Below the pieces are notes generated by a model that did not search any database, had not been told where the DNA came from, and saw only the letters and a program-made list of their open reading frames with translations. Source: a virus. Taken from it: a DNA stretch of 64,000 nt. Position 1 is the stretch's first letter. Each line of letters opens with the position of its first letter. Positions 2 through 64,000 of this stretch are shown piece by piece. Made by a program: the position numbers and the translations under genes. The stretch spans positions 190,366-254,365 of the IMG/VR virus record IMGVR_UViG_3300045988_176431. The stretch is one strand, 5' to 3'.

Positions 2-487
2 TCTAATTATGATAATGCATATGCACATTCAACAAGTGCTCATGCACCATCAAATGCTGAAAGAAATGTAATATTAGGTATTCAAAAGAATGGGATTGAT
101 ATAACTCCGAATACAAGTACGCGAAAGGTAAATATTACAGTTCCCAAAAAAATAAGTGAATTATCAAATGATTCTGGTTATATAAGCAAGCACCCATCTG
201 TAGAAACAGAGCCAGATACATCATCAAGCAAATCAATCAATATAAAAACTGGAGATTCATTTGATGTAGTTGATTCAGTAACAAGAGATTCAAATGGTCA
301 TGTAACAAAGATAAATGTAAAAACAGTTACTGTACCAAAACATGATAACTCAGGTGGAGGTGTTGTTAGAAGTAAAACAGCTCCAAAGGATACAACAGTA
401 TTATGGATTGATATTAGCAGTACAAACGAAATTCCTAAATATTATAATGGAACAGTTTGGATTACATTACCAGCAGTATGGGGGTGA
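2..487 (+). CDS. tail-fibre-like protein, C-terminal fragment (5' end outside window)
   Basis: Frame 2 is open from the window edge to TGA 485-487 (161 codons). The translation (..AYAHSTSAHAPSNAERN..ISELSNDSGYI..SNGHVTKINVKTVTV..WITLPAVWG) resembles fibre/receptor-binding proteins. The next gene starts 7 nt downstream. Confidence 0.55.
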   Translation, partial: SNYDNAYAHSTSAHAPSNAERNVILGIQKNGIDITPNTSTRKVNITVPKKISELSNDSGYISKHPSVETEPDTSSSKSINIKTGDSFDVVDSVTRDSNGHVTKINVKTVTVPKHDNSGGGVVRSKTAPKDTTVLWIDISSTNEIPKYYNGTVWITLPAVWG

Positions 488-493
488 TAAAAA

Positions 494-1996
494 ATGTTGA
501 CAGCAAATGAATTAATTGAATTAAAAAAACTGATTGATGCACAGATAAAGAGACGATGTGGATATGGACCAATGCAAGAAGTTGGTGATTTCGAAGAAAC
601 ACCAAAAGCAGGTGGAATTATAAAAGCAGAACAAGGAGAAAAAATTATTTCTCCCATTCTTGAAGTAGAAGATGTATCGGGATTAACTTTAACAATAGAT
701 TCGTATCATACCTCTACAACAAATTTAAAAGCTCATATCGAAGTGGGAACTCCAATTCCTAAAAATTTTAATAAAAATTTATTTGATATTGTACATAAGC
801 TATCAGAAGAAACGATGCAAAATCAAGCATCATGTTGTCGTGGTGCGTGTACAGGACTTTGCTATGGTACATGCTCATCGTTTTGTAGTGGGTGTTCTGG
901 TAGTTGCGGTACAGGTTGTGGGTCAAATTGTACAAAAACGTGTGGAAATAGTTGTGGAAACTGTACAAGATCATGTACGGCAACTTGTGGAGGAAGTTGT
1001 TTTGCTTCATGTGGTGCTGATTGTACTGGAGGATGTACTGGATCATGTTCTGCAGGTTGTGATGGATGTTCTGGTAGTTGTGGTACTGCATGTACATCCG
1101 GATGTACAGGATGCTCTGGATGTTCTAATGGTTGTACTGGTAGTTGTGAAAATGGCTGTGAGTTTGGTTGTATACATGGATGTAAAGGCTGTACTGGCAC
1201 TTGTGGAAATAGTTGTAGTGGTTGTCAAGGATGTACTACTGGTTGTTCTGGAGGATGTTCAGGATGTAAGGCATCATGTGGTTCTGAATGTGCAGCATCA
1301 TGTGGAAATAAATGTACTGGATGTGGTGACAGTTGTCACAGTGATTGTGGTGGATCATGTTCAAATTCCTGCTCAAATTTCTGTGCTAACGGATGTAATA
1401 CTTGTTCATCTGGTTGCACAGGTGGATGTACTGGGCATTGTTATGGATGTACAGGTACTTGTGGTAATACTTGTGGTGGAGGATGCGGCTCTACATGTTC
1501 AAGCAGTTGCATTGGTTGTTCTGGATGCGGTGGAACATGTTCTTCTAGTTGTGGTGGATGTACTACGACGTGTGACCATAGTTGTTCGGGATGTTCTGCA
1601 AGTTGTGGTGGATGTGACGGTGATTGTGCGAATTCATGTGCAGGTTGTTTTGGTTGTTCTACAAGTTGTAATGGATGTAGTTCATCTTGTTCTACAAGTT
1701 GTAATGGATGTTCAAAAACATGTGGCGGATGTTCAAGTTGTTCTGGATGTTCTACAAGTTGTGGTAATGCGTGTACATCTGGATGTGCTGGATGTTCTGG
1801 ATGTAGTTCATGTACTGCTGGTTGTTCAGATTCATGTAATGGATGTGTTGGTTGTTCAATATCATGTGGAAATGGATGTTCTGGATGTAGTTCAAATTGT
1901 CAAGGAGTATGCAAAAACTCATGCTTTAGTACATGTACATCAACATGTTTCGGAAATTGTACAGGATCATGTTATGGTTCTCTAACATCGATATAA
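494..1996 (+). CDS. cysteine-repeat (CxxxC/CxxC) protein, putative substrate of the downstream radical SAM/SPASM maturase
   Basis: ATG 494 follows GGGGGTGA. The protein is 500 aa. Residues 1-113 are ordinary sequence. Residues 114-493 hold about 104 Cys (hand count) spaced only as CxxxC or CxxC, with G/S/T/N/A/D fillers and no Pro, Trp or Met. Cys codons are almost all TGT. Confidence 0.8.
   Translation: MLTANELIELKKLIDAQIKRRCGYGPMQEVGDFEETPKAGGIIKAEQGEKIISPILEVEDVSGLTLTIDSYHTSTTNLKAHIEVGTPIPKNFNKNLFDIVHKLSEETMQNQASCCRGACTGLCYGTCSSFCSGCSGSCGTGCGSNCTKTCGNSCGNCTRSCTATCGGSCFASCGADCTGGCTGSCSAGCDGCSGSCGTACTSGCTGCSGCSNGCTGSCENGCEFGCIHGCKGCTGTCGNSCSGCQGCTTGCSGGCSGCKASCGSECAASCGNKCTGCGDSCHSDCGGSCSNSCSNFCANGCNTCSSGCTGGCTGHCYGCTGTCGNTCGGGCGSTCSSSCIGCSGCGGTCSSSCGGCTTTCDHSCSGCSASCGGCDGDCANSCAGCFGCSTSCNGCSSSCSTSCNGCSKTCGGCSSCSGCSTSCGNACTSGCAGCSGCSSCTAGCSDSCNGCVGCSISCGNGCSGCSSNCQGVCKNSCFSTCTSTCFGNCTGSCYGSLTSI
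1655..1711 (+). repeat. exact 24-nt direct repeat at 33-nt period inside the Cys-repeat gene
   Basis: tgttctacaagttgtaatggatgt occurs at 1655-1678 and again at 1688-1711 (CSTSCNGC twice). A third, diverged copy starts near 1749. Confidence 0.9.
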
Positions 1997-2030
1997 CAAA
2001 AAAATAACAAAATATAAAGGAGTGAAAAAA

Positions 2031-2318
2031 ATGAATATATTAAGATGTAAAAATGGTTCTTTTAAAATTGAAAATGTGCGTGAATATATTAATTTTCAAA
2101 ATGGAACACCGAAAAGATACATTGATATTCAATCAACAAATAGTATCACTTCATTCGATGAAGTAGCTGATGTATTGACAAAAGATACCGTAAAGGAATT
2201 TGAAATTCTCTCAGAATCTGGTGTAATATTAGATACAATTAAAAATGTAAAATTAACAAATATTAATAAAGACATTTCAAATTCAGTTTCTATTGTTATT
2301 AACTTCGAAAAAGAGTAA
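2031..2318 (+). CDS. hypothetical small protein (fibre-module associated)
   Basis: The ORF track starts at GTG 2022, but AAGGAG at 2018-2023 plus 7 nt favours ATG 2031 (MNILRCKNG..). There is no recognisable motif. It ends ..INFEKE, like the next ORF (..IFFNKEV). Confidence 0.5.
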   Translation: MNILRCKNGSFKIENVREYINFQNGTPKRYIDIQSTNSITSFDEVADVLTKDTVKEFEILSESGVILDTIKNVKLTNINKDISNSVSIVINFEKE

Positions 2319-2333
2319 AGGAGTTGATTCTTC

Positions 2334-2639
2334 ATGATAACTATTAAATTTGATAATGGTATACGGATTAATCCTGATTCGTATGGTTATCTAAAGAATA
2401 AAATGGTAAAATTACTCTTTTATAAAGATTATAATGAAGAAGACTTGATACGGAAAATAGGATATGCGAAAGACCAAAAATTTACTTTAATTATTGATTT
2501 ACCTGGAAGAGAAAAAGAAATTCGTTGTGTTAATTTCCATTTCTCTTCCATGATAAAACATATAAAAGGAAGTAATGGAAAAGAAATATCAGATGATTCT
2601 GTACAATATCTTGAAATTTTTTTTAACAAGGAGGTGTAA
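2334..2639 (+). CDS. hypothetical small protein (fibre-module associated)
   Basis: ATG 2334 is preceded by AAGGAG (2320-2325). 101 aa, tightly packed between neighbouring genes. Confidence 0.5.
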   Translation: MITIKFDNGIRINPDSYGYLKNKMVKLLFYKDYNEEDLIRKIGYAKDQKFTLIIDLPGREKEIRCVNFHFSSMIKHIKGSNGKEISDDSVQYLEIFFNKEV

Positions 2640-2642
2640 AAT

Positions 2643-4136
2643 TTGTCTTTTTTTAATGATAAATTTTTAACCGAAGTAAGTAATTACGAATATCAAAAGA
2701 GTTATGAAAAAAAATCACTTGTATTATATAATAATCATATTTATATTGCAAAAAAAGATACAAATGAAAAAATTGTTCCTGAAACAACAACTGATGATTG
2801 GGAATATATTAGTTACGACGATTGTATTAATATCATTGCCAATATTGGCTCTTTTACAGGTGATTCTTATTTAGGTACAAAAAAATATCCATTTATGGGA
2901 ACCATATTACAAAATTCTATTCAGATTTTACAAAAGAATAAAGTAAATCGACCAGGATATTTTTCTAATATTAAATTTGGAAAAGATATCGTAGATGATA
3001 ATAATGCAACGAATTTTGGTGTTTTATATGACATTGATAATGAAAATCCAAAGTTAATTGCTATGACAAATGCATTAAATGAAGTAGATTTGGGAACTGG
3101 ACAATTTTGTTTTAATAATATTTATTCTAGTTCACCAACTATTACTATTTCAGATGACGATAAAATAGCATCTACAAAAGATATCAATACAAATGATTAT
3201 ACAAATTTCTTTATGAGTTTAACACCAAAAGGTTATATTCTCACAAATGAAAATGGAACAAGTGGTAGAATGCATATTGGTTTTGCTGCTACTGATGTAG
3301 AAAAAGCATTAAAAGAAAACAATCTTTCACCTGATGATTTTGCACCACTTGTAAAAATCCCTGTATTAAAAAAAGATTTATATGTAGACCATTCAATTAA
3401 TGATTTGATGTTAAAACGTTTTCATTATGAAGATGGTGAAGAAGTTTCTGATGAGGATGAAAATGAACATGAAACAGGTGAAAGTTTAATACGTTATATT
3501 AAATTACCGATTTATCGAAAGAATATTGGATATTTTGTATTTAAAAATTATCCAATTGATCCAAATACAGAAACAAATGATGATGCAACAATCATTGTAA
3601 AAGAATTAGAATTAATTCCATTTGATAAAAACAAAAAATCATTAAAGATTAACTTTAACAAAGCTCGATTAAAAGAGAACTATAATGATGAATTTGAATG
3701 TCGTAGTAATATGGAAGTATTAGAAGATGGGTCATTAAAGATTACTTTTACAGGTGATAAACTTTCAGATCCATTTGCTTATATTACAGCAAGAGTATCT
3801 TTAAATGATATCAATGCAGAGAAAGCATATGATTTATCAAAATATGAATATCTTAAAATCGTAAGTGATTATAAGAGACCATACTTAATTGGTTTTGATG
3901 AATTTCAATCAAGTGAAGAAAATACAGCATATCATCCATATCAAACGAATGAATTTGGAGATTTCTACTGTTATTCACAAGATGACCAATATAGTGTAGA
4001 AAGTTATATCTATGCTCTTAGATATGATGAATTCATCGCTTTAAATACTATGATGATTCAAAATCAACAAAAACAAATTAATGAATTAAAAACTGAAATA
4101 TTGAATATCATATCAAAAATAAAAAATATTAAATAA
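2643..4136 (+). CDS. fibre-like protein with split peptidase-S74-type intramolecular chaperone domain
   Basis: TTG 2643 lies 5 nt after AAGGAGGTG, and the first in-frame ATG is 85 codons in. The TITISDDDKIASTKDI..RMHIGFAATDVEKAL..DFAPL block and the C-terminal YALRYDEFIALNTMMIQNQQKQINELK coiled coil match my memory of the S74 autoprocessing chaperone (..hlGfiAQeve.. / ..Y..l.alli.aiqeL..). About 230 aa are inserted between the two blocks. Confidence 0.5.
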   Translation: MSFFNDKFLTEVSNYEYQKSYEKKSLVLYNNHIYIAKKDTNEKIVPETTTDDWEYISYDDCINIIANIGSFTGDSYLGTKKYPFMGTILQNSIQILQKNKVNRPGYFSNIKFGKDIVDDNNATNFGVLYDIDNENPKLIAMTNALNEVDLGTGQFCFNNIYSSSPTITISDDDKIASTKDINTNDYTNFFMSLTPKGYILTNENGTSGRMHIGFAATDVEKALKENNLSPDDFAPLVKIPVLKKDLYVDHSINDLMLKRFHYEDGEEVSDEDENEHETGESLIRYIKLPIYRKNIGYFVFKNYPIDPNTETNDDATIIVKELELIPFDKNKKSLKINFNKARLKENYNDEFECRSNMEVLEDGSLKITFTGDKLSDPFAYITARVSLNDINAEKAYDLSKYEYLKIVSDYKRPYLIGFDEFQSSEENTAYHPYQTNEFGDFYCYSQDDQYSVESYIYALRYDEFIALNTMMIQNQQKQINELKTEILNIISKIKNIK

Positions 4137-4151
4137 TGGAGGAAATGAATT

Positions 4152-4487
4152 ATGACAAAAAAATTTAAAATTGAAATTACACAGGAAGCAATTGATTATG
4201 TACAGAGAATTGGATATGAGGTAGATGGTTTTACTCATATTATTAATTCCTTATTTGAACAGCATAAGAATGATATCGATGATTCTGTAATTAAAAGTGT
4301 GCCTTTCCAGACTTACCAAAAGAAATTCTTTAAGGTAAAAGCTGAATATGAATTAGCAAAACAGGCACTTGAGAAGGAATTGAAAAAGAAAGTAATTGAG
4401 AAAACGGGAATTGAAGATCCTAAATTCTCATGGAATATTCCTGACTTCCAAGAATTAATTGTAGATATTGAAGTTGAGGAGGACTAA
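4152..4487 (+). CDS. small acidic companion protein of the radical SAM maturase (possible CXXX-repeat modification-system protein)
   Basis: ATG 4152 follows TGGAGGAAA. 111 aa, helical and acidic (..DIEVEED). Its last codons contain the RBS (GAGGAGGA) of the maturase, which starts 3 nt after its stop. Confidence 0.45.
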   Translation: MTKKFKIEITQEAIDYVQRIGYEVDGFTHIINSLFEQHKNDIDDSVIKSVPFQTYQKKFFKVKAEYELAKQALEKELKKKVIEKTGIEDPKFSWNIPDFQELIVDIEVEED

Positions 4488-4490
4488 AAA

Positions 4491-5825
4491 ATGAATGGTA
4501 GAGTTCGTAAATTTGAGCAATGGCAAGACATGCTTGGAAGACTCTATCCAGAATTTAGAAAAAATAGTGACGGTTCAGATAAAGTATTATCTCGAACCGT
4601 CACTTTTCAGGTGACGGATAGATGTTCTCTCGCTTGTACTTATTGCTATCAGATTAATAAAAAAACAAGAGTTATGAAATTTGAGTATGCTAAAAAATTA
4701 ATTGATGCTTTATTAGAAGGAGATGAAAAATTCTCTGACTATGTAAACGTTGATACCTCGCCAGGAATCATTATCGAATTTATCGGTGGTGAACCTTTAT
4801 TAGAGCCAGAATTAATCGAACAAATCTGTGATTATTTCGAAAAAAGAGCAATCGAGTTAATGCATCCTTGGGCATTACATCATGAATTTTCAATTTGTTC
4901 AAATGGCGTTGCTTACTTTGAACCAACGGTACAACATCTTTTAAATAAATATCGTCATAAACTTTCTTTTTCTGTTACAATTGATGGAAACAAAGAACTT
5001 CATGATTCTTGTCGAGTATTTCCAGATGGTGTAACAGGAAGTTATGATTTAGCAGTTGCTGCAGCACAAGATTGGATTAATCACGGTGGTTATATGGGTA
5101 GTAAAATAACAATTGCACCTGGAAACATTAAATATATTTATGATGCAATCACTCATATGGTCGAATTAGGATATCAAGAAATCAATGCAAATACAGTATA
5201 CGAAAAAGGATGGACAATTGAACATGCTAAAATCTTTTATCAAGAATTAAAAAGAATTGCTGATTATTGGATTGATCATAATATTGTTGAATCTCATTTT
5301 TTGGCATTATTTAGTGAAAATTTCTTTAAACCAAAAGATGAAAAAGATTTAGATAACTGGTGTGGTGGTAATGCTTTAATGTTATCAATGGATCCAGATG
5401 GGTATCTATATCCATGTATTCGTTATATGGAATCATCATTGGGAGATGAAAGAGAACCATATCGAATTGGTCATGTTAATGTTGGAATTGCACAAGATGA
5501 ATGTACTCATAATTGTGTAGAGTGTCTAAGAAAAATAACAAGAAAAACACAATCAACAGATGAATGTTTTTATTGTCCAATTGCAGAGGGTTGTAGTTGG
5601 TGCACGGCTTACAATTATCAAGAAACTGGTACTCCAGATAAAAGAGTTACCTATATTTGTGATATGCATAAAGCAAGAGCATTAGCAAATGTTTACTTCT
5701 GGAATAAATGGTATATAAAAACAAAACAAAATAAAGTATTTAAAAATCATGTACCAGATGATTGGGCTCTTACAATTATTGATAAGGATGAATTAGATTA
5801 CTTGAAGAGTTTAGAAAAACGATAA
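4491..5825 (+). CDS. radical SAM / SPASM-domain peptide maturase
   Basis: Motifs seen: CSLACTYCY (Cx3Cx2C), FIGGEPLL, and a C-terminal auxiliary-cluster Cys set (WCGGNALMLSMDPDGYLYPC, CTHNCVEC, CFYCPIAEGCSWC, YIC). No sulfatase-type partner or CxPxR target is nearby. Confidence 0.8.
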   Translation: MNGRVRKFEQWQDMLGRLYPEFRKNSDGSDKVLSRTVTFQVTDRCSLACTYCYQINKKTRVMKFEYAKKLIDALLEGDEKFSDYVNVDTSPGIIIEFIGGEPLLEPELIEQICDYFEKRAIELMHPWALHHEFSICSNGVAYFEPTVQHLLNKYRHKLSFSVTIDGNKELHDSCRVFPDGVTGSYDLAVAAAQDWINHGGYMGSKITIAPGNIKYIYDAITHMVELGYQEINANTVYEKGWTIEHAKIFYQELKRIADYWIDHNIVESHFLALFSENFFKPKDEKDLDNWCGGNALMLSMDPDGYLYPCIRYMESSLGDEREPYRIGHVNVGIAQDECTHNCVECLRKITRKTQSTDECFYCPIAEGCSWCTAYNYQETGTPDKRVTYICDMHKARALANVYFWNKWYIKTKQNKVFKNHVPDDWALTIIDKDELDYLKSLEKR

Positions 5826-5830
5826 AAAAT

Positions 5831-5862
5831 ATGAGAGATAAGGAAATTTCCTTATCTCTCAT
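5831..5862. terminator. bidirectional rho-independent terminator
   Basis: Perfect 16+16 palindrome atgagagataaggaaa/tttccttatctctcat between the convergent maturase (+) and endolysin (-) genes. It is flanked by an A run and a T run. Confidence 0.85.
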
Positions 5863-5870
5863 ATTGCTTT

Positions 5871-6764
5871 TTACCATTTAATATTTTTTGTAGCAACCCA
5901 TTTACCGGTTCCAATATTAGTCCAATATTTTCTCTTACATACAATACTTACAGTATCACCTGCTTTGAGTTTACCGATTTTTTTCGATACTTTCTTATTT
6001 GTTTTACGAATATAACTATTCTTTTTTAATTTCTTCGTTGGATATTTACTAAGTCCAATTGTATTAAGGGCTGTATTTTTCATATATCCAGTTTTACCCT
6101 TATAATATACTTTAGACCATCCATCTTTCATATCTTTTAAGATATTCACATAGATTCCTTTATCTAATTTTGCAATAACACCCTTCTTAACATCCTGAGT
6201 TTTGTAAATCTTACAAACTACTTTTGTTTTAGAAGAACGTGTTTTGCCTTTCCCTTTAACGTTTGCCCCATTATAATCTACGCCATCAATTTTACCATAA
6301 TATGTAAAATCTTTTGCTCTCTCTTCCCATGTGGAGATTGTGCAATCTTTTGCTGTAGAACGTGCTTCATAGATATATGCTTTTCCTTCATCATTCACAT
6401 GAATCAAAGCAATATGTCCTTGATACCAGATTCCCATTCCATCTACAACATGACTATCATTACTCACTTTATGGCATACTTTAAAACTATCTTTAATACC
6501 AGTAGAACCACCGTGGTTTGTTCCAGTTGCTTTACCAACAAACCCAGAACAATCAATACCGATTTTTCCTACTTTATTCATAGCCATTGATTTAATAGAT
6601 CTTGTAAATACAGAAGGGTACATTCTAGCAAGATTCGAAACACCTGCTTTAGTTACTTTCGTTCCTTTGTATCCATACACATATACATATCCATCTTTAA
6701 TCATTCTTCTTGCATTCTTGCAAGCATCTGATGCTTTAACAGACATATAGACACTTCCTTTCAT
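5871..6764 (-). CDS. endolysin: NlpC/P60 cysteine peptidase + two SH3b-like domains
   Basis: GIDCSGFVGK (catalytic Cys) and QGHIALIH (His) match NlpC/P60. The C-terminal half has two SH3b-like repeats (GVIAKLDKGIYVNIL..GWSKVYYKGKTGYM; IGKLKAGDTVSIV..WTNIGTGKWV). The likely true start is the second ATG (6746), which follows AAAGGAAG. Confidence 0.75.
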   Translation of the reverse strand: MKGSVYMSVKASDACKNARRMIKDGYVYVYGYKGTKVTKAGVSNLARMYPSVFTRSIKSMAMNKVGKIGIDCSGFVGKATGTNHGGSTGIKDSFKVCHKVSNDSHVVDGMGIWYQGHIALIHVNDEGKAYIYEARSTAKDCTISTWEERAKDFTYYGKIDGVDYNGANVKGKGKTRSSKTKVVCKIYKTQDVKKGVIAKLDKGIYVNILKDMKDGWSKVYYKGKTGYMKNTALNTIGLSKYPTKKLKKNSYIRKTNKKVSKKIGKLKAGDTVSIVCKRKYWTNIGTGKWVATKNIKW

Positions 6765-9809: not shown

Positions 9810-10691
9810 ATGGTAGATAATTTGAACATGACGAGAGAAAGAATAAGAAAACGTCGTAAATATTGGATTGAACGAATGGAATCGAATTCAATTTATAAAA
9901 GAGAAACTGAACGAAGTATTGATAAATCTCGTTTATATCATTCTTATCATATAAGAGATAAGATTTCTCCAATTTATGATACTCCTGCTAAAGTAGAATA
10001 TCGTGAAGAAAAGACAAACGAAACGATTATGCATATATGTGATGAAGTGTCAAATTATGATAGTTCACCGGAAACTAAAATTGCTGTACTTAATTTTGCA
10101 TCTTATAAAAGACCTGGTGGAGGATTTCTTACAGGAACTGGCACGGCACAAGAAGAATCTCTTTGTGAAGTAAGTAACCTTGCTTTAATCTTAGAGAATT
10201 TTATCGATGAATATCGGGAAAGAAAAGCAAATTATGGATTGTATTCAAATGATTGTATTTATTCTCCTGATGTTTTATTTCGAGATAAAGGAAGAAAATG
10301 TATATTACGTCGATGTGATGTAATCAGTATATCGGCACCAAATTATATCGTTTATACGAGTAAGGGAAACGATTTCTCATTTAGAAATAAATATGGAACA
10401 ACTAGTATTCATCATCATTTAGATTACCTAGATGCAATTGATACTAGAATTCAAACTATTTTTGATATTGCGGTTGACAATAAGGTAGATGTTTTAGTTC
10501 TTGGTGCCTTTGGATGTGGAATTTTTGGAAACAAACCAACGTTAGTTGCTGAAACTATGTTTAAACTGGTAAAAATATATGAAAAGAACTTTAAGAAAAT
10601 TATTTTTACGATTCCATATAATCCAAAAGTAACACCAGCATTTAAATTATATTATAAATTATATAAGGAAGGAAAAGGTGAAGAACTATGA
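9810..10691 (+). CDS. bacterial-type poly(ADP-ribose) glycohydrolase-like macrodomain protein (DUF2263/TIGR02452-like)
   Basis: VLNFASYKRPGGGFLTGTGTAQEESLCEVS contains the PARG signature GGG-x8-QEE. VLVLGAFGCGIFGNKP matches the second conserved block of this family. Confidence 0.7.
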   Translation: MVDNLNMTRERIRKRRKYWIERMESNSIYKRETERSIDKSRLYHSYHIRDKISPIYDTPAKVEYREEKTNETIMHICDEVSNYDSSPETKIAVLNFASYKRPGGGFLTGTGTAQEESLCEVSNLALILENFIDEYRERKANYGLYSNDCIYSPDVLFRDKGRKCILRRCDVISISAPNYIVYTSKGNDFSFRNKYGTTSIHHHLDYLDAIDTRIQTIFDIAVDNKVDVLVLGAFGCGIFGNKPTLVAETMFKLVKIYEKNFKKIIFTIPYNPKVTPAFKLYYKLYKEGKGEEL

Positions 10692-11281
10692 AAAAAATAA
10701 ATTCATATGTTATTAAAGTATTAAAGAATTGCTTAGATTTTAAAAATACTAAAATCAATATGAAGTTTGAAGATAGAGTTTCTTTATTTATTCAAACAAT
10801 TTCAGGTACTTATTTCGACTTTTCAAAATGGGTAGAAAGAAGAACGTTTGAAAATCTCTTTCATATGATTTTTACATTTGATATGAATGATGTATTGAGA
10901 AGTTGTCCTGAAAAGAAACAAGAGTTAATGATTGGAGATTTTGATCCTGATGATGTGATTATTGCATTCTTAGGACCACTGATGGAATATCAACCATTAA
11001 ATGATGAAATGATTTCTGAATTATTTGAGAATGAGAATAAATCTTTTGTGACATACGCATTCTTAATTACGATGTATGTCTCATTTCCATTTCATGTAAT
11101 TGAGAGATTATTAGATGAGGTTTCTATTCCTGATAAAGAAATCATTATGAGATCTCAGTATTTTACAGAAGAAGAATATAATAGTATTTCTTTTCATTGT
11201 ACCTCTCTTGGTAGTTATACAAACTACTTAGAAAATTATATTGCACGAATAACCACAAGTATATCATTAGAAAGAAATTAG
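10688..11281 (+). CDS. hypothetical protein
   Basis: 197-aa ORF with a 4-nt ATGA overlap with the upstream gene. No motif recognised. Confidence 0.5.
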   Translation: MKKINSYVIKVLKNCLDFKNTKINMKFEDRVSLFIQTISGTYFDFSKWVERRTFENLFHMIFTFDMNDVLRSCPEKKQELMIGDFDPDDVIIAFLGPLMEYQPLNDEMISELFENENKSFVTYAFLITMYVSFPFHVIERLLDEVSIPDKEIIMRSQYFTEEEYNSISFHCTSLGSYTNYLENYIARITTSISLERN

Positions 11282-11296
11282 GGGGAAAATAATAAA

Positions 11297-11818
11297 ATGA
11301 ATTACGCAGATATAAAAGAATATGATGTAGCAAATGGTCCAGGAGTTCGACTTAGTTTATTTGTATCTGGATGTCCACATCATTGTAAGAATTGCTTTAA
11401 TGAAGAAACATGGGATTACTCTTACGGAAAACCATTTACTGAATTTGAAGAATCTAAGATGATTTCTATTTTGAAAAAGAAATTGGGATACATTTATGAC
11501 GGTCTTTCAATTCTTGGTGGAGAACCATTTGCTGACGAAAATAAAAATGATGTATTACATTTTGTCAAAAGAGTCAAAAAAGAAATTCCAGATATTAATA
11601 TCTGGATGTATTCTGGATATTTATTTGAAGAATTGATAGAAGATGACATAAAATATGAAATTTTAAGTCATATTAATACATTGGTCGATGGGAGATTCGT
11701 AGAAAACTTAAAGGACTTGAAATTACGATTTAGAGGTTCTTCAAATCAAAGAATTATCGATGTTCAGGAATCATTAAAAACAAAAACTGTAAAAGAAATG
11801 TATAATTACTATAAATAA
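11297..11818 (+). CDS. nrdG: anaerobic ribonucleotide reductase activating protein
   Basis: N-terminus MNYADIKEYDVANGPGVRLSLFVSGCPHHCKNCFN is the canonical NrdG start with the CxxxCxxC radical SAM cluster. 173 aa. Confidence 0.9.
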   Translation: MNYADIKEYDVANGPGVRLSLFVSGCPHHCKNCFNEETWDYSYGKPFTEFEESKMISILKKKLGYIYDGLSILGGEPFADENKNDVLHFVKRVKKEIPDINIWMYSGYLFEELIEDDIKYEILSHINTLVDGRFVENLKDLKLRFRGSSNQRIIDVQESLKTKTVKEMYNYYK

Positions 11819-14140: not shown

Positions 14141-15196
14141 CTTATTTACCCTCGATTTCTCGATATTTATATAGGGAATAGACTATCTCATAATCTAATA
14201 TAAAAAATATATTAGATCCTTTGCACTACACACGTGGAATTTCACCACAATGCTCTTATGACATAATAATCATTATATCAAATTTAGTCGTTACACTTTA
14301 CTTTTAATTAATTCTTTTACCTCTTAAACCTTTATATGTAGACATTCTACCACTAAGTAGAGATTTTAAACTAGATGGATTCCATCCATTCTCAAAACAT
14401 GTTTTATTAACATTTTTGTACTCTTTAGAACTTCCGTCTGGAAAATAAATTATAAATTTAACAGTTCTTCTTGTATTTCCTTGTTGTTCTTTAACATGAA
14501 CCCATCTACAATTTGACTTTTCATAGTTTCCATCAGGATCAATCCTATCTAATGAAACATTTTTTTCTCCATATAATAAACACGCATCTTTATAAGATTC
14601 AAACATATCATCATAAAAATCAATAAAATATATCCATGAATCACTGTTTATCCCTCTTCCGCCATAATCTGAATAATGTTCATATGTTGGATTAGTTGTC
14701 CGTGTTCGTAACGAACACCAAATTGAATGAAATTTTATATTTTTCGTTTTTAATCCAGTTCCACACGCACTATGATTTGTTCCAGAATGTCTCATGACAG
14801 TTTCAGGTAGCATTGTTTTATATCTTCCGCATTTTGTACATCTCATTAAATAGACTGATGTTTTTCTTTGTACATGATAACCATAACTGATACATTTTAG
14901 ATCATCTACAATTGTACCATTTTTGAGTATTTCTAAAGGTTTCAATATTTAATCACACCTTTCTTCTTTAATAAAAAATAGTATAATTAAATATTATTAA
15001 TTAAAAGTCTTAGCACGGTATTACCTGCTATCCAATATTATTGGACCGTAGGTTCTCTTAGGGAGCGTATTCGAGATTTAAAATCCTTATTTAACTCTTA
15101 CCGTTAGCAAATTATAAAAATATAATTCACACCTACTATTTAGTAGTTCACAAAGTTTTTCATTATATATCACTATATAATGCCACTAGTATGTCA
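14141..15196 (-). mobile_element. group I intron (phage IA2-like) interrupting nrdD, carrying an HNH endonuclease ORF
   Basis: The exon 1 frame hits TGA right after ..YYTNSYH, and the NrdD sequence resumes 1056 nt downstream. The exon end ACCAU can pair with the intron GUGG (U.G at the splice site). The proposed last intron base is G. RNA-strand segments CCGTGCTAAGACT, GTAACGACTAAA and GAGATAGTCT resemble T4 td/sunY intron core segments (from memory). Boundaries are +/- a few nt. Confidence 0.7.
14304..14945 (-). CDS. HNH homing endonuclease (intron-encoded)
   Basis: TTG start lies 12 nt after GAAAGG. SLDRIDPDGNYEKSNCRWVHVKEQQGN is an HNH motif, and there is an N-terminal Cys cluster (CTKCGRYK..HSAC). 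The ORF lies wholly inside the proposed intron. Confidence 0.75.
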   Translation of the reverse strand: MKPLEILKNGTIVDDLKCISYGYHVQRKTSVYLMRCTKCGRYKTMLPETVMRHSGTNHSACGTGLKTKNIKFHSIWCSLRTRTTNPTYEHYSDYGGRGINSDSWIYFIDFYDDMFESYKDACLLYGEKNVSLDRIDPDGNYEKSNCRWVHVKEQQGNTRRTVKFIIYFPDGSSKEYKNVNKTCFENGWNPSSLKSLLSGRMSTYKGLRGKRIN

Positions 15197-17488
15197 ATGG
15201 TAACTGTTGGTATAGTATCCTTTATCTGTGATATTTTCAATTTCACCAAACTTCTCTTTATCAATTTCAGCAAAGCGATAACAAAGACTTTCTGCTGGTG
15301 TACCATATAAACCAAATCCTAATCCTGTTTCTTTTTTCCATTTATCAACAGTTTGCTTTAAATATTTCATAACTCGTAAAGCAAACTCATGACCAACTTC
15401 TGTTGTATGACTTACACCTTTCATAGCAATTGTTGTTTCATATACTCCTATATACCCAAGTGAAATAGTAGCATAACCATTTTGTAATAATTTATTAATT
15501 TTTTCACCCGGTTTTAATCTAGCAATAGCACCGTATTGCCAATGAATTGGTGAAATATCACTCGGAGTATCTAAAAGATTTTTATATCGACAAATAAGTG
15601 CTTTCTTACAAAGTTTAAGTCTTTCATCTAATAATCTCCAAAATACTTTTTCATCACCATTAGCAATAATACCAATTTGTGGAAGATTAATTGATACCAC
15701 ACCCATATTAAAGCGTCCTTCCCATTTATAATTACCATTTTCATCTTTCCATGGTGATAAGAATGAACGACAATTATGGGAATACATACCATTTACCTCA
15801 AAATGATCGGATTCTGTTTCTACGTCATAACTATCCATAGAAATTCCTGTCATCATAGAGATTTTTTCAATTTCAACCTTTGTAATATTTGCTTTCTTAT
15901 TTTTGTCTTCTTCATTATTATAATAGACTTTATCTCCAATTTTGAGATCCAATCCATAAGTTCTTCCTTTTTCTACAACAACAAATGGATGATCTGTTGT
16001 ACAATAAATATTTACTTTATTATCCAATCGTACTTTCATCCAATTATTTACATTATAATTTTTAATTACTTTCTTTACACGAACCCATCCATCCATTGTA
16101 TCATAAATATAAAGTTCTGGAACTTCCATATACAAATGAGGAGATTCTTTTCCATTGATAATTTCTTGTGGAATTTCTTTATTTTCTTTTTTCAATTCTT
16201 TCCACATAAATTCAAAAGTTCCTCTTTTTTCTTCTCCTTTATATTTATAATGAATTTGGGATTTACCGCTTACACATCCCATACAAGAAAATACTTCACC
16301 CTCATAATTTTCTCTCATTTTCTTTGCTGAGATGTAATCTGGATACAATCGTTTTGCTGTACATTTAATCGCATCCTTTGTAATATAATGATATTTACCA
16401 CCAGGCATTGTATTATCATCCAAAACATAAATTAATTTTGGAAATGCTGGTGTAATATAAACACCTTTTTCATTCTTAATTCCTTCATATCGTTGTTTAA
16501 TAATCTCTTGAATAATCATTGCTGAATAATCTTCATAAGGATCATTATCATCGATGTGCATAAATAAAGTTACAAACGGGCTTTGACCGTTAGTTGTCAT
16601 CAACGAATTTATTTGATATTGAATCGTCTGTACTCCATCTTTTAATTCATCTTGTAATCGAACATAAGCAGATGATTCAATAGCTTTTTCTTTTTGCTCT
16701 TCATTTTCAAAATTCCATAATTCTGGATTTGAATCAATTTCTTCTCTTATCTTTCGTCTATGTTTATCATGACTAATTTTTAGATATTTTCCTAAATGTT
16801 TTACACTTACACTCTGTCCTCCATATTGATTACTTGCTACTGCAGCGATAATCTGAGTCATAACTGTACAAGCAACTCGGAAACTTTTTGGAGATTCAAT
16901 TAATTTTCCATTCATAACCGTTCCATTATCTAACATATCTTTGATATTGATAAGGCAACAATTAAATTCATTTTGTAAGTAATAATCCATATCATGGAAA
17001 TGAAGGATTCCTTCTTCATGTGCCTCCACAATATCTTTTGGAAGAAGTACACGTTTTGACAAATCCTTACTTACTTCACCTGCAATTAAATCTCTTTGTG
17101 TAGAAAGAACGGTTGCATTTTTATTTGAATTCTCTTCCATTAAGGTTTTATTTTTTTGTCGGATTAACGAAAGAATTGATTCATCTGTTGTGTTTACTTT
17201 TCTAGCAATTTCACGAGTATATCGATAAATAATATATTTTTTTGCTAACTCATATTTACCGAATTTTTCCACCATAGTTTTTTCAATAATATCTTGAATT
17301 TCTTCTACAGTAATTTTATTATTTTCTTTTTTTATTCCAGATTTTTTTACAATAGAGAGAATAATGTTAATTTCAGACATTGTAACACGATTATTCTCTG
17401 ACACCTCTTTATTTGCTTTCTGGATTGCAGATACGATTTTGTTTTCATCATAAACAACTTCGCGTCCATCTCGTTTTATTACTACCAT
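15197..17488 (-). CDS. nrdD: anaerobic ribonucleoside-triphosphate reductase, exon 1 (includes mini-intein)
   Basis: ATP-cone start MVVIKRDGREVVYDENKIVSAI, then ..HFHDMDYY..NCCLINI.., FSCMG[intein]CRSFLSPW..GVVSINLPQI.., ..GTPAESLCYRFA.., ending GYYTNSYH. Confidence 0.9.
15773..16276 (-). mobile_element. 168-aa mini-intein in NrdD
   Basis: It begins with Cys (CVSGKSQ..), has block B TTDHPF, and ends ..HFEVNGMYSHN followed by a +1 Cys. Removal restores the conserved ..FSCMG-CRSFLSPW.. sequence. No endonuclease domain is present. Confidence 0.8.
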
Positions 17489-26310: not shown

Positions 26311-26398
26311 TGCCGGTGACGAGACTTGAACTCGTACGGACAACTACGTCCCCAGGATTTTAAGTCCTGTATGTCTACCACAATTCCATCACACCGGC
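26311..26398 (-). tRNA. trnL: tRNA-Leu (anticodon UAA), type II with long variable arm
   Basis: Reverse complement GCCGGTG..CAGGA-CTTAAAA-TCCTG..GGAC-GTAGTT-GTCC..ACGAG-TTCAAGT-CTCGT-CACCGGC-A folds as a cloverleaf. No CCA is encoded. Confidence 0.85.
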
Positions 26399-26433
26399 TT
26401 TCTTTTTAATTTGTTTTTTATTTATCTTATAAA

Positions 26434-26505
26434 CTGCTCAAGTAGGACTCGAACCTACAACAACACGATTAACAGTCGTGGGCTCTACCATTGAGCTATT
26501 GAGCA
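26434..26505 (-). tRNA. trnN: tRNA-Asn (anticodon GUU)
   Basis: Reverse complement TGCTCAA-TA-GCTC-AATGGTA-GAGC-C-CACGA-CTGTTAA-TCGTG-TTGTT-GTAGG-TTCGAGT-CCTAC-TTGAGCA-G. Confidence 0.85.
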
Positions 26506-26510
26506 TAAGT

Positions 26511-26631
26511 CCCCTGTTCTCGGCATATGAAACTTGTAATAATAAATTTATTTTAACATTATCAAGCCGAAAGAAGGAGTGCCGAGAATTTTAATCTTGC
26601 CGGAATATCCCGTTCAAGATTCTATCAGGGG
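26511..26631 (-). ncRNA. candidate structured small RNA embedded in the tRNA cluster (function unknown; strand assumed from context)
   Basis: Nested complementarity: cccctg (26511-16) with cagggg (26626-31); ttctcggca (26517-25) with tgccgagaa (26580-88); aatcttg (26593-99) with caagatt (26615-21). This gives a closing stem plus two hairpins in about 121 nt. No ORF and no tRNA cloverleaf. Confidence 0.35.
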
Positions 26632-26635
26632 ATAA

Positions 26636-26708
26636 TGACTCCAGGGAGATTCGAACTCCCGTTACCGCCGTGAAAGAGCGGTGTCACTAACCACTAGACC
26701 ATGGAGCC
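26636..26708 (-). tRNA. trnE: tRNA-Glu (anticodon UUC)
   Basis: Reverse complement GGCTCCA-TG-GTCTAGTGGTTAGTGAC-A-CCGCT-CTTTCAC-GGCGG-TAAC-GGGAG-TTCGAAT-CTCCC-TGGAGTC-A. Confidence 0.85.
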
Positions 26709-26732
26709 TTATTTCTTATTTGTTTTTTGCAA

Positions 26733-26806
26733 TGGATGCTCAGGGAATCGAACCCTGGACCTCTCGGTTATGAGCCGATTTCTCTAACCAACTGAGATAA
26801 GCATCC
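26733..26806 (-). tRNA. trnM: tRNA with CAU anticodon (elongator Met, or Ile2 if lysidine-modified)
   Basis: Reverse complement GGATGCT-TA-TCTC-AGTTGGTTA-GAGA-A-ATCGG-CTCATAA-CCGAG-AGGTC-CAGGG-TTCGATT-CCCTG-AGCATCC-A. The G1-C72 pair argues against an initiator. Confidence 0.8.
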
Positions 26807-26848
26807 TAAATTTAATTATTTGTTTTTCTTATTATAAATAATTATAAA

Positions 26849-26920
26849 CTGCCCTAACTGGATTCGAACCAGTAAATACACGAGTCAAAGTCATGTGCCT
26901 TACCATTTGGCGATAGGGCA
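26849..26920 (-). tRNA. trnQ: tRNA-Gln (anticodon UUG)
   Basis: Reverse complement TGCCCTA-TC-GCCAAATGGTAAGGC-A-CATGA-CTTTGAC-TCGTG-TATTT-ACTGG-TTCGAAT-CCAGT-TAGGGCA-G. Confidence 0.8.
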
Positions 26921-27073
26921 ATAATTTCCCATTTGAGAATATCTTAAATGGGAAATGTCGAAAAAAGAAGTTTTTTGAGTAAAAACACTACATTTAGTCT
27001 TGAGATTATTCCTGTCATCTCAAGACTAAATAATTGTTATGATATGAATTATTTATTATTTATACCAGAAAAA

Positions 27074-63800: not shown

Positions 63801-64000
63801 TTTCTTCACAAGAGTACCAGCTTTAATTCTTGCTTGTAATTCTTTTGGTGATATATCTTGGTTCTTTAATCTTTCATCGTTTTTATTAAAACATTCACCT
63901 TTAGCGTTATAATAAGTACCATCTGCAGCAGCAAAAACACTTTCTTTACTATCCATAAAGAAGTTCTTCGTTTTTTCAGCAGCATTTTTGACACCATTTA
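60843..64000 (-). CDS. tail-associated multi-domain peptidoglycan hydrolase / tape-measure-like protein (N-terminus outside window)
   Basis: The frame stays open upstream of ATG 63956 to the window edge (..NGVKNAAEKTKNFF-MDSK..). There are three hydrolase modules. The first is papain-like: SGCGPTAFAMV..SGHYVVAVG..NDPRG, about nt 62637-63134. The second is CHAP: YWCATFVNWCF..SHTGIVVAVDGNTITTVEGNT, about nt 62082-62564. The third is a phage tail-lysozyme module: AATAGILGNMYQESGVNP..AAGIFQWE, about nt 61257-61769. The N-terminal part has GxxKGWxxLK repeats. Confidence 0.7.
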   Translation of the reverse strand, partial: NGVKNAAEKTKNFFMDSKESVFAAADGTYYNAKGECFNKNDERLKNQDISPKELQARIKAGTLVKKEKVKKSGIKNLASKAWNGLTGGIKKGWEGLKSFAGGVKEKFGELKDGFVKFAKDPLGSVKSFFTSSKKQGYMSPEGDYYILNNDKTWTHYSATGGILEDKIKDKEKIKEINSKIKNGTLVQTEITDKSGLQKIGEKFQNAVSKGWDKIKDGASSLWSGITNFFGGGGDEVSKTTGKVTKQTAAIVPGGKDAAKKSMANQKKTGGNGENEDDENGGNGEEVNGFSYFSQKDKKWSGNKYGSKDGKHSSSFGKSGCGPTAFAMVANQLKGGKIDPTTIADDAIKSGYRDETGTNANFIDYESQKYGLDTTQQDTPSAEYIIGQMDKGRPMILNGITSGSKDSAYTKSGHYVVAVGRDKNGNILINDPRGKSKSVPISPEDLAKETRIGWTFESPGHTIKKITKRIGGHGDKNTFTAEDVIKIAKGEVGYCEKQTNSKLDDKKANHGTKNFTKYARDIGVANGLYWCATFVNWCFIQAANGDKKKAKEVLCGANTQACRDNSNAFKKAGRLDMKPQPGDVVFFLGAGSSHTGIVVAVDGNTITTVEGNTSPGKFNRNGGCVAEKKYNYKSNRRISGFGHPKYDGSSSFNGQVGTADSSSDSNSSTTESSSDNAITSFSDKFTNLFTQFSEKAMNGITTGKWDYNFNADGNTTDSSSSGNDTTDNTSGTSDGKIDTSISGNNESEQVWNFFTNNGFSPAATAGILGNMYQESGVNPKSIQGNGAGPAAGIFQWENYNKKNGRFGGLLKKAKKRNKSWKDIGVQLEYALGEMQSADLNKRFAGKIGYLQHNPWNMTDTDNKHYSVKPVKGGFEGYKQMTDPTEATKVFEAAFERAGKPHFSRRIAYAKKMMNKYGDKVGGNGEGEGTDTYLNETSERYFNPQYKKTNTFDVNRTVHVNTTNKSGNNIMNVIDTKKLEEILEKAVSVLESIDKSTSSSQKELQNLRNASNNQMNNVTNNNIYNTSNQSGTTATGKNINDRNSKLAAMLARG

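Follow-up and report, generated by a model that had tools for sequence, protein, structure and literature searches.

We asked what a gene for a protein with a cysteine every three or four residues, followed downstream by a gene for a radical SAM/SPASM enzyme, is doing among the tail-fibre genes of a virus. The window, by which we mean the whole stretch of 64,000 nucleotides of viral DNA that was analysed, belongs to the genome of a gut jumbo phage. An earlier note had read the locus as a peptide-maturation cassette embedded in a fibre module, an interpretation that we find partly supported; its ORF coordinates all agree with ours, and the relevant features are the following.

2-487, + strand: 3' end of a tail-fibre gene; its full-length 773-aa homologue in the near-identical contig L001 matches Pfam Phage_fiber_2
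494-1996, + strand: Cys-rich ORF of 500 aa with 105 Cys, 104 of them within residues 114-493
494-832, + strand: N-terminal non-repeat domain (aa 1-113), with its own HMM and found in related loci
833-1972, + strand: Cys-repeat array (aa 114-493, 104 Cys), delimited by spacing statistics, a conserved start motif and a cap
1973-1996, + strand: short C-terminal tail of the Cys-rich protein (YGSLTSI), with the stop codon
2022-2318, + strand: lineage-specific 98-aa ORF, among the loci only in L001
2334-2639, + strand: lineage-specific 101-aa ORF, among the loci only in L001
2643-4136, + strand: second fibre-like protein, 497 aa (phrog_7121 tail fiber, 6e-10; phrog_17635; weakly Peptidase_S74)
4152-4487, + strand: companion protein, 111 aa, predicted helical hairpin, adjoining the 5' side of the maturase gene in viral loci
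4491-5825, + strand: radical SAM/SPASM maturase, 444 aa, above the TIGR04115 cutoff
5828-5865, no strand assigned: bidirectional terminator with a perfect 17-bp hairpin between the convergent maturase and lysin genes, closing the block
5871-6764, - strand: 297-aa SH3_3-domain protein, probably a lysin (Pfam SH3_3, 7.8e-12)

The enzyme encoded at 4491-5825 scored 496 bits against NCBIfam TIGR04115 ("radical SAM peptide maturase, CXXX-repeat target family"; curated cutoff 350), and judged by this profile it belongs to the CXXX-repeat-target radical SAM/SPASM family. The next-best profiles were all those of Cys-thioether enzymes, namely PapB (168 bits, cutoff 340), the nearest by score among characterised enzymes, QhpD (97 bits, far under its cutoff of 453) and the SCIFF maturase model TIGR03974 (90 bits, cutoff 425). 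The radical SAM motif CX3CX2C is present as C45/C49/C52 and the SPASM cysteines, which had been recognised from the letters, form a complete set (C291..G304..C309, C345, C359/C362/C368/C371 and C390); both are invariant in 17 homologues. An identity as an anaerobic sulfatase maturase, which the earlier note had listed among the outcomes that would refute its reading, was ruled out at 46 bits versus a cutoff of 349. The closest solved structure was CteB (PDB 5wgg, E 2e-14), which has the radical SAM and SPASM architecture in common with the phage enzyme. The alignment begins at CteB residue 93, and the N-terminal RRE domain of about 90 aa found in CteB is therefore absent from the phage maturase, in which only about 30 residues precede the radical SAM core.

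The putative substrate is defined by its regularity. The array contains 104 Cys, as had been estimated, and the gaps between consecutive Cys comprise 72 CxxxC, 30 CxxC and a single CC, such that all but one of the 103 spacings follow a CxxC or CxxxC pattern and 99% of gaps measure 3 or 4 residues; the maximum in 2000 composition-preserving shuffles was 40%, with none near the observed value. It consists of 27% C, 22% G, 19% S and 10.5% T, lacks Pro, Trp and Met, and holds 8 Asp, with Asp and Glu together accounting for 11 of 380 residues. Since scanning of the underlying DNA with TRF returned short degenerate arrays only, the array is not a recent DNA expansion. It starts with SCCRGACTGLC, corresponding to a motif (SSCRGACTGLC) that is near-invariant across the family, and ends with the cap ...CFSTCTSTCFGNCTGSC-YG, a version of the ...TC[YF]xxCxx[QT]C[FY]G cap kept in distant lineages. 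The Cys-rich ORF also weakly matches phrog_6085.

An alternative-frame ORF (783-1985) is likewise open across the repeats, which would fit the notion that the Cys-rich ORF does not encode a protein and is an artefact of low complexity. Against this stand the perfectly conserved Cys register without DNA-level repeats, the conserved motifs at both ends of the array and the 111 ORFs in the fetched loci that matched our N-domain HMM. Moreover, comparison of the window with L001 gave 94.7% identity and a pN/pS of 0.41 for the N-domain, which by this measure is under purifying selection. We regard an artefact as hardly credible and effectively refuted by conservation.

The companion had been described as an acidic protein coupled to the maturase, and this holds: it has 23 D+E versus 17 K+R, ends in ...GAGGAGGACTAA and is followed by AAA and the maturase ATG, leaving a gap of 3 nt, and the Shine-Dalgarno sequence for the maturase (GAGGAGG, 4476-4482) therefore lies within its last codons. 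The two genes are thus translationally coupled. Its AlphaFold model (pLDDT 73) contains helices at residues 11-37 and 50-85, and a fold search with it returned neither an RRE-like nor any other significant match. Homologues form 103 representative clusters among 1.84 billion proteins.

The arrangement resembles the CXXX-repeat system of NCBIfam, which the earlier note had correctly described as having three parts: Cys-repeat targets (TIGR04114 and TIGR04117), a maturase (TIGR04115) and an associated protein (TIGR04116). To our knowledge, that system is computationally defined and has never been characterised experimentally. Both sets combine a target with a Cys every 3 or 4 residues with a small partner adjoining the enzyme, yet of the proteins in the window only the maturase passes a curated cutoff of that system. 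The window companion does not match TIGR04116, which was touched by just 1 of 24 companion family members (E=0.005), and the window target reached neither the TIGR04114 nor the TIGR04117 cutoff, its match to the latter being weak (14.6 bits, cutoff 50). In addition, whereas the curated target model spans about 98 positions, phage targets of 170-670 aa with a distinct N-domain of about 110 aa are the norm in this clade; the large substrate, which the earlier note had set apart as roughly ten times the size of a peptide, is consequently no peculiarity of the present phage. Finally, all lineages tested here place the system in a phage tail-fibre module, a context for which we found no record for the NCBIfam family.

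Co-occurrence of the maturase with Cys-repeat genes had been named beforehand as a refutation test. We evaluated 40 non-redundant maturase lineages at 90% identity, taken from prophages of Clostridia and from viral contigs 30-249 kb in length, and found a Cys-array ORF in 40/40, the companion in 38/40 and the N-domain (about 110 aa) in 37/40. In viral loci, the companion lies directly upstream of the maturase in 80/80 and the N-domain is present in 76/80, the four exceptions all being contig ends. The array is very probably the substrate of the maturase. It had also been suggested that the N-domain might serve as a leader; however, several lineages carry most repeats on a separate, leaderless polypeptide, and the N-domain can therefore not be a leader required in cis. 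Its AlphaFold model (pLDDT 46) is of low confidence and too poor for testing a fibre-docking fold.

The placement within a fibre module is equally consistent. Without exception among the lineages tested, the cassette is flanked by a tail-fibre gene on one side and holin/endolysin genes on the other, in myovirus-like, siphovirus-like and jumbo genomes alike; in prophages the order is tape measure, hub, baseplate wedge, fibre, Cys protein, companion, maturase, holin, endolysin. The upstream genes match Phage_fiber_2 or Phage_tail_fib, BppU_N or PHROG tail-fibre families, and their C-termini fall into at least three classes. In the window, the fibre-like character of the flanking genes is confirmed by the PHROG matches of 2643-4136 and by the L001 homologue of 2-487 (Phage_fiber_2 25.3 bits, cutoff 22). 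The C-terminal 45 or so residues of the 2-487 product carry the motif ...TVLWIDxS...KYYNGTVW...VWG, which immediately precedes the Cys-rich gene in 19 of the first 41 loci and in 37/80 viral loci. This fibre gene is translationally coupled to the Cys-rich gene (TGG GGG TGA TAA AAA ATG), with a GGGGG Shine-Dalgarno sequence at 480-484 in its last codons. The 2643-4136 insertion between the Cys-rich gene and the companion is particular to this lineage, with homologues just in L001 and one further locus (L007); profile searches gave no family matches for the 98-aa ORF and no meaningful ones for the 101-aa ORF. On the other side, the block is closed by a palindromic terminator as had been described, with a hairpin of 17 bp rather than 16 bp. 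The SH3 part of the adjacent 5871-6764 product resembles (35.7% over 70 aa) an ORF downstream of the cassette in another locus, L012, that matches PHROG endolysin families.

A slot beside lysis genes often houses accessory genes, and the cassette may alternatively be a phage-carried RiPP-like accessory set whose modified product is released at lysis or exported as a diffusible bacteriocin, adhesin or metal scavenger and is not part of the virion. The curation of the family as peptide maturases is in keeping with this, as are small substrate versions of about 100-230 aa, whose leader-like N-terminus recalls RiPP precursors. The related scaffold MT837480.1 encodes a Cys-repeat protein with a Tat signal peptide, which makes export, and not attachment to a fibre, the probable fate of some family members. 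Furthermore, the only proteomic data that we found come from the phage SPN3US, whose version of the system is distant: mass spectrometry of its virions picked up the neighbouring tail proteins gp167-171, whereas the small Cys-repeat protein gp166 was not detected. The enzymes gp163-165 were also absent from SPN3US virions, and together with the absence of gp166 this would suit a protein that acts inside the infected cell, as a thiol/redox sink, anti-defence decoy or regulator, and is merely co-located with late genes. Several observations argue against the first of these readings. Among the flanking ORFs tested there was no exporter, leader peptidase or immunity gene, so that the cassette is not a classic RiPP cluster; it occurs in large, apparently lytic jumbo phages; it always shares a strand with the fibre gene that precedes it, and in the window the Cys-rich gene is coupled to that fibre gene; and the substrates reach 670 aa with a conserved domain of 110 aa. 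An intracellular role is difficult to reconcile with the strict placement between fibre and lysis genes across such different genomes, and we saw no link to defence or anti-defence genes.

Divergence from L001 bears on both readings. While neighbouring genes are 98-100% identical, the array is only 82% identical and the fibre C-terminus (2-487) 84% at the amino acid level, the two diverging together. Within the array, 104/104 Cys columns are kept, 24% of non-Cys positions differ and pN/pS at non-Cys codons is 0.74; the array is hypervariable yet Cys-invariant. Shared divergence with the fibre counts against both a diffusible and an intracellular product, and we consider the former unlikely and the latter very unlikely. 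Presence of the product in the virion is, in our judgement, slightly favoured.

With regard to chemistry, PapB is a radical SAM/SPASM enzyme that forms several in-line thioether rings from CX3-register Cys of PapA, the precursor of the ranthipeptide freyrasin, and the PapA leader is presumed to bind the RRE domain of the enzyme (PMC9413430). The phage system differs in having a separate helical companion instead of an RRE domain, and about 100 sites compared with 6 in PapA. PapB links Cys to Asp/Glu at i+4. Since such an acceptor (Asp at i+4) is mostly absent from the array, where i+4 is the next Cys, the predicted chemistry cannot be simply PapB-like. The SCIFF precursor is a peptide with a length of about 45 aa and six Cys. 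QhpD, another radical SAM/SPASM enzyme, cross-links the QhpC subunit of quinohemoprotein amine dehydrogenase, placing three cross-links in about 80-110 aa. This offers a parallel for SPASM-installed Cys thioethers in a protein that stays in a complex and is not a secreted peptide, although the QhpC complex is cellular and not a virus particle. By analogy with these enzymes, thioether formation appears reasonably probable.

The scarcity of PapB-type acceptors, and the high cost in SAM (modifying some 100 sites per chain would consume about 100 SAM per molecule), would also be compatible with an array that serves as a scaffold for metal or Fe-S clusters, or that assists fibre assembly transiently, and is not a poly-thioether. 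The enzyme would then make few or different modifications (such as a single priming cross-link or the conversion of Cys to formylglycine) or act on the fibre protein. CxxC and CxxxC are classic metal-binding spacings, the inter-Cys residues are small, flexible and G/S/T-rich, and the cassette occupies the post-fibre slot, which usually encodes tail-fibre assembly chaperones. The enzyme, however, lies much nearer to thioether formers than to sulfatase maturases by score, and its family tracks Cys arrays and not one fibre class; conserved caps combined with hypervariable surface positions are more easily explained by a structure that is retained and exposed than by a chaperone acting transiently. 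We therefore view a scaffold or assembly role as improbable.

We favour, with a probability of about 0.5, a conserved three-gene phage module of substrate, helper and enzyme that matures a tail-fibre-associated, thioether-cross-linked protein. The Cys-rich protein would be made together with the fibre protein from the gene just upstream, and in the anaerobic cytoplasm of the infected cell the radical SAM/SPASM enzyme would process its array. By analogy with PapB, CteB and QhpD, the enzyme may join Cys sulfurs to carbons of nearby residues, so that the CxxxC/CxxC array would become a series of small thioether rings arranged like a ladder. The helical-hairpin companion, produced at a fixed ratio to the enzyme, could present or hold the substrate and thereby substitute for the missing RRE domain. 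The product would be rigid and shaped like a rod or knob, would withstand proteases and reduction, and would sit at the fibre tip or close to it, with exposed non-Cys positions diversifying with host range on a fixed Cys scaffold. Covalently reinforced virion proteins have a precedent in the HK97 capsid chainmail, which differs in that its cross-links are autocatalytic isopeptides, and T4 gp57A and P2/Mu Tfa are small helpers encoded in a post-fibre slot, but they are fibre chaperones and not enzymes; we know of no dedicated Fe-S/SAM radical enzyme in any of these. The module points to chemical cross-linking of a fibre component in many phages whose hosts are anaerobic bacteria, which, if true, has not been described before: we found no description in the literature searched of a phage fibre component cross-linked by a radical SAM enzyme.

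Of the top 120 maturase homologues, 9 were over-length with Hint/intein-type Pfam domains, and a close relative carries an intein exactly at the SPASM ligand C371. Inteins tend toward critical sites of important genes, and we count this insertion as a sign of the importance of the maturase to the phage.

The cassette formed by the Cys-rich gene, its small companion and the radical SAM maturase lies among fibre genes on the plus strand, and all ORF coordinates read from the sequence in the earlier note held on re-analysis:

2-487 (+), end of the upstream fibre gene, encoding the C-terminal part of a 773-aa Phage_fiber_2 protein
494-1996 (+), Cys-rich protein, 500 aa (N-domain, residues 1-113; Cys array, residues 114-493)
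2643-4136 (+), second fibre-like gene, matching PHROG tail-fibre families
4152-4487 (+), companion, 111 aa
4491-5825 (+), maturase, 444 aa
5828-5865, perfect 17-bp hairpin that ends the block

The proposed coupling of companion and maturase was confirmed, with the companion ending in GAGGAGGACTAA, followed by AAA and then the maturase ATG, and the Cys-rich gene is likewise coupled to the preceding fibre gene. A terminator does close the block, but the hairpin measures 17 bp and not the 16 bp first reported. The window is phage-like, with a low GC content of 28%, and encodes virion proteins, NrdD, a lysin/tape-measure protein and five tRNAs; it is almost identical to a 249-kb IMG/VR contig, and a nucleotide search of the phage collection returned no close record.

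The placement of the cassette in a fibre module was borne out by its neighbours, since recognised tail-fibre and baseplate genes flank it on the same strand in the window and in its relatives, and it was found downstream of tail genes at every locus whose neighbours were scanned. In Desnuesiella a run of tape measure, hub, baseplate wedge, tail protein and fibre genes leads, in that order, into the genes for Cys protein, companion and maturase, which are followed by holin and endolysin; comparable flanking tail genes, not in the full Desnuesiella order, occur in six further loci (L012, L015, L017, L033, L034 and L040), and BppU_N or tail-collar fibre domains lie immediately upstream of the cassette in L002-L006 and L037. 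Cassette carriers include contractile-tail-like, siphovirus-like and jumbo genomes, and such prophages are present in isolates of Desnuesiella massiliensis, Eubacterium pyruvativorans and Vallitalea maricola. We rejected the C-terminal motif of the upstream fibre as a universal docking site, because the Cys gene follows upstream fibres with at least three unrelated types of C-terminus.

We then asked how consistently the three components travel together. The database holds 3,428 maturase relatives at E<=1e-20, the top 120 of which are at least 59% identical, many of them on contigs of 100-236 kb. Relatives were sampled through two conserved peptide patterns, so that coverage extends to maturases of about 40% identity or more, and the sample comprised 35 bacterial-genome loci (almost all from Clostridia, isolates included) and 80 of the 197 matching IMG/VR contigs. 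Maturases were clustered into lineages at 90% identity, and the 40 lineages with at least 3 kb of upstream sequence were counted. The maturase was accompanied by an ORF with 20 or more Cys on the same strand in all 40, by the companion in 38 and by the N-domain in 37, with all three present in 36; this supplies the synteny check suggested by the earlier note. The Cys protein, the companion and the maturase form one functional unit in the fibre and fibre-assembly slot.

TIGR04115-type enzymes have long been known from computational work, as have their Cys-repeat targets, and the maturase belongs to this family. It scored 496 bits (cutoff 350, E 8e-149) against the NCBIfam model TIGR04115, "radical SAM peptide maturase, CXXX-repeat target family", over model positions 2-359 of 359, a family named in the earlier note. 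Scores against neighbouring families stayed under their cutoffs: 168 bits for the PapB model NF047865 (cutoff 340), 90 bits for the SCIFF model TIGR03974 (cutoff 425), 97 bits for the QhpD model (far under cutoff) and 46 bits for the anaerobic sulfatase maturase model TIGR03942 (cutoff 349), the last being a grouping that the earlier note had named as counter-evidence. The radical SAM motif CX3CX2C corresponds to C45/C49/C52, and the SPASM-type set of C-terminal Cys seen at first reading is complete for two auxiliary clusters (C291-X12-G-X4-C309, C345, C359-X2-C-X5-C-X2-C371 and C390); neither the CX3CX2C motif nor the eight C-terminal Cys varied in 17 homologues. The nearest solved structure is that of the thioether-forming CteB (5wgg), with an alignment from query residue 31 and CteB residue 93; because it starts only there, the maturase has no counterpart of the CteB RRE domain. 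The cassette differs from the SCIFF/CteB system both in this N-terminal RRE and in the TIGR03974 score.

Several maturases are longer than that of the window. In the near-identical IMG/VR contig L001, the maturase gene (L001:8001-10358) carries an intein of 341 aa (CFKAG...IVHN/C) directly before the SPASM ligand C371 of the CX2CX5CX2C motif; the site corresponds to window 5598-5603, and the window maturase is free of it. Nine of the top 120 homologues are likewise over-length and contain Hint/intein-type Pfam domains (P0006, with LAGLIDADG, P0047, P0067, P0070, P0073, P0103, P0112, P0116 and P0117), and on these domain matches they probably contain inteins too. Separately, the maturases of L035 and L036, from one uncultured Bacilli MAG and one Bacillota MAG, measure 581 aa, about 135 aa above the usual length. 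Of these two loci only L036 was scanned; downstream, at 10618-11787, it encodes a T4 gp63-type "RNA ligase and tail fiber attachment catalyst" homologue (phrog_562, 5e-46).

The Cys-rich protein, the putative substrate, contains 105 Cys in 500 aa, and both the count of 104 within residues 114-493 and the CxxxC/CxxC spacing reported earlier were reproduced: consecutive Cys are spaced as CxxxC 72 times, as CxxC 30 times and as CC once, so that 99% of gaps measure 3-4 residues, compared with at most 40% in any of 2000 composition-preserving shuffles. Pro, Trp and Met are absent from the array, which is rich in C, G, S, T, N and A. Tandem Repeats Finder detected only short degenerate arrays in its DNA, and we therefore rejected recent slippage expansion as its origin and conclude that the Cys register is kept by selection. 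The 380-residue array holds only 8 Asp and 3 Glu, and the i+4 position is Cys; this scarcity of Asp and Glu excludes acceptor atoms like those used by PapB, and the cassette differs from PapB-type ranthipeptide systems in their CX3D/E acceptor motifs as well as in the NF047865 score. The array could instead act as a metal-binding or assembly scaffold, a reading that we regard as quite unlikely. An alternative-frame ORF of 400 aa (783-1985, +) is open across the Cys-repeat DNA; its translation is rich in V, D, L and H, and the composition of the repeats almost certainly accounts for its being open.

Across the family, the shortest Cys proteins have about 170 aa and the longest about 670, and the number of Cys reaches 145. 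The N-domain of about 110 aa has the consensus ...LKxKVKAEMxRRxGYGSL...EHGQKTIDLLLKI... and terminates in a near-invariant SSCRGACTGLC, and the arrays close with a conserved cap, ...TC[YF]xxCxx[QT]C-[FY]-G. In the window protein, the match to TIGR04117 covers the SSCRGACTGLC region at 14.6 bits (cutoff 50), and TIGR04114 (cutoff 20 bits) gave no match; among the Cys proteins of relatives, weak matches were seen in 7 of 20 for TIGR04117 and in 4 of 20 for TIGR04114. Searches with the N-domain yielded no match by tblastn and one fragment in a word-indexed protein search, and a concatenated profile of N-domain and companion retrieved only 19 proteins. AlphaFold modelled the N-domain with 85 repeat residues at a pLDDT of 46, and this model was left out of the fold search. 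A precomputed Pfam family, PF27846, covers some N-domain/CXXX proteins (P0128, P0131, P0133 and P0140); should this family already be described as a phage fibre domain, novelty would be lower.

In several lineages the protein is split into an N-domain protein with only about 12-20 Cys and a separate all-repeat polypeptide with its own Shine-Dalgarno sequence and ATG. We therefore rejected the N-domain as an obligatory cis leader. At L092:8103-9314, L099:4306-5547, L101:8062-9315 and about 20 similar viral loci, the N-domain and repeat ORFs share a frame and are separated by a single TAA or TAG followed by AAGGAGG. There the repeat ORF has no canonical in-frame start until codon 176 (L099, L101) or codon 48 (L092), with AGG at the position that is ATG in L086, and its Cys register and end cap are intact. 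Stop-codon readthrough or non-canonical initiation could operate at these junctions.

Comparison of the window with L001 revealed where the module varies. Neighbouring genes are 96-100% identical at the aa level, the companion 100% and the maturase 98.9%, and identity falls to 84% in the C-terminus of the upstream fibre and 82% in the Cys array. All 104 Cys columns of the array are kept, and pN/pS at its non-Cys codons is 0.74. Judging from this comparison, the divergence pattern of the array and the fibre C-terminus is that of host-range modules.

The window companion belongs to a family of its own, which consists of proteins of about 100-120 aa and counts 103 representative clusters. AlphaFold predicts a long two-helix hairpin (pLDDT 73, moderate confidence), in which the PqqD-like winged helix and three-stranded sheet of an RRE do not appear. 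Foldseek searches with the model against PDB and BFVD gave generic helical hairpins only and no match at E<0.001, and a profile search against PDB sequences gave no match. TIGR04116 proteins, the "CXXX repeat peptide modification system protein" family, occupy an equivalent position beside the maturase, but the window companion does not reach the curated cutoff and had no match to TIGR04116 even at E<=10; one of 24 companion-family members matched, at E=0.005. The NCBIfam cassette outlined in the earlier note does exist, with models TIGR04114 and TIGR04117 for the targets, TIGR04115 for the maturase and TIGR04116 for the associated protein; the window maturase scores above its cutoff, and the window companion and target fall under theirs. 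Tandem-double companions of about 205-265 aa were seen at L012:7337-7996 and in P0158, P0164, P0172, P0174, P0175 and P0181.

Considering that the three genes form one unit in the fibre slot, that the relatives of the enzyme all make Cys thioethers, and that the ends and the Cys scaffold of the array are fixed and its surface positions vary, we favour a fibre-associated protein in which the enzyme would install a ladder of thioether rings as cross-links, the companion being a candidate substrate adaptor. We infer both the thioether chemistry of the maturase on the array and the incorporation of the Cys-rich protein into the virion. In its full form, the reading that a phage radical SAM/SPASM enzyme and a new helical adaptor turn widespread tail-fibre tip proteins, with 25-145 CxxxC/CxxC units, into a continuous poly-thioether ladder has, in our estimate, a probability of about 40%. 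If true, this would be the first case of a virion protein covalently reinforced by an enzyme through radical chemistry, the substrate would be far larger than any other known for a RiPP-type maturase, and RiPP-type radical SAM chemistry would extend to entire structural proteins, each modified at about 100 sites. A new principle of phage assembly would come with it, in which an oxygen-sensitive Fe-S enzyme covalently hardens a fibre component in anaerobic hosts, and the resistance of gut phage fibres to proteases and reducing conditions would become easier to explain. The reading would mark a hypervariable host-range element in which the variable non-Cys positions form the host-recognition surface, and many predicted Clostridia "RiPP clusters" would really be prophage fibre genes, a caution for genome mining that this "RiPP" family consists largely of prophage tail components. 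The reading is directly testable because isolates carrying such prophages exist. Our literature search turned up no paper that deals with the CXXX-repeat family or with the maturation of a phage protein by a radical SAM enzyme. It likewise gave no description of the cassette's consistent setting among tail-fibre genes, of such large multi-domain substrates, of the helical companions as a family, of arrays with caps or of the hypervariability.

More distant versions bear on two further readings. A gut-phage scaffold with a 38%-identical maturase retains the complete gene set. On another human gut phage scaffold, MT837480.1, the ORF directly before a maturase 36% identical to that of the window (L125:2219-2743) encodes a Cys-repeat protein of 175 aa whose signal is of the twin-arginine type (SRREFFK...), which suggests an exported, non-fibre variant of the system. 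A canonical RiPP cluster pairs a short precursor, carrying a cleavable leader, with a leader peptidase and/or an exporter; here the precursor has 500 aa, and the flanking ORFs tested are tail, holin and endolysin genes, with no transporter or peptidase among them. We consider it unlikely that the window product is a released RiPP-like factor.

In the cultured Salmonella jumbo phage SPN3US (JN641803.1), two tandem CxxxC-repeat ORFs of about 133 aa (L043:3130-3528 and 3542-3943) lie just upstream of the radical SAM genes and after the tail protein genes gp167 and gp168, the first of them in an annotation gap. They scored 19.6 and 17.1 bits against TIGR04114 (cutoff 20), and the best NCBIfam match of gp163 was again TIGR04115, under cutoff at 126 bits. 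The gp168 protein is similar to phiKZ gp131, a protein of the baseplate periphery (PMC5105663). By virion mass spectrometry of SPN3US, which gave the only proteome that we found, gp167-171 were detected and gp163-166, including the small Cys-repeat protein, were not. An intracellular role of the modified protein would fit this last result; we hold it to be very improbable. The same ORF pair lies between a tail gene and radical SAM genes in the cultured Erwinia jumbo phage pEa_SNUABM_43 (L124:3116-3514 and 3518-3916), where both ORFs are unannotated and opposite-strand ORFs are annotated across them.

Elsewhere in the window, three further features were recorded:

15194-17488 (-), NrdD-like anaerobic ribonucleotide reductase, with PHROG matches over residues 1-423 and 568-764; the unmatched stretch of about 145 aa between them may be an insertion
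26311-26921 (-), cluster of five tRNA genes (Leu-taa, Asn, Glu, Met and Gln)
60843-63956 (-), 1037-aa protein with an endolysin-like segment (residues 466-657) and tape-measure-like segments, probably a tail-associated lysin or tape measure protein
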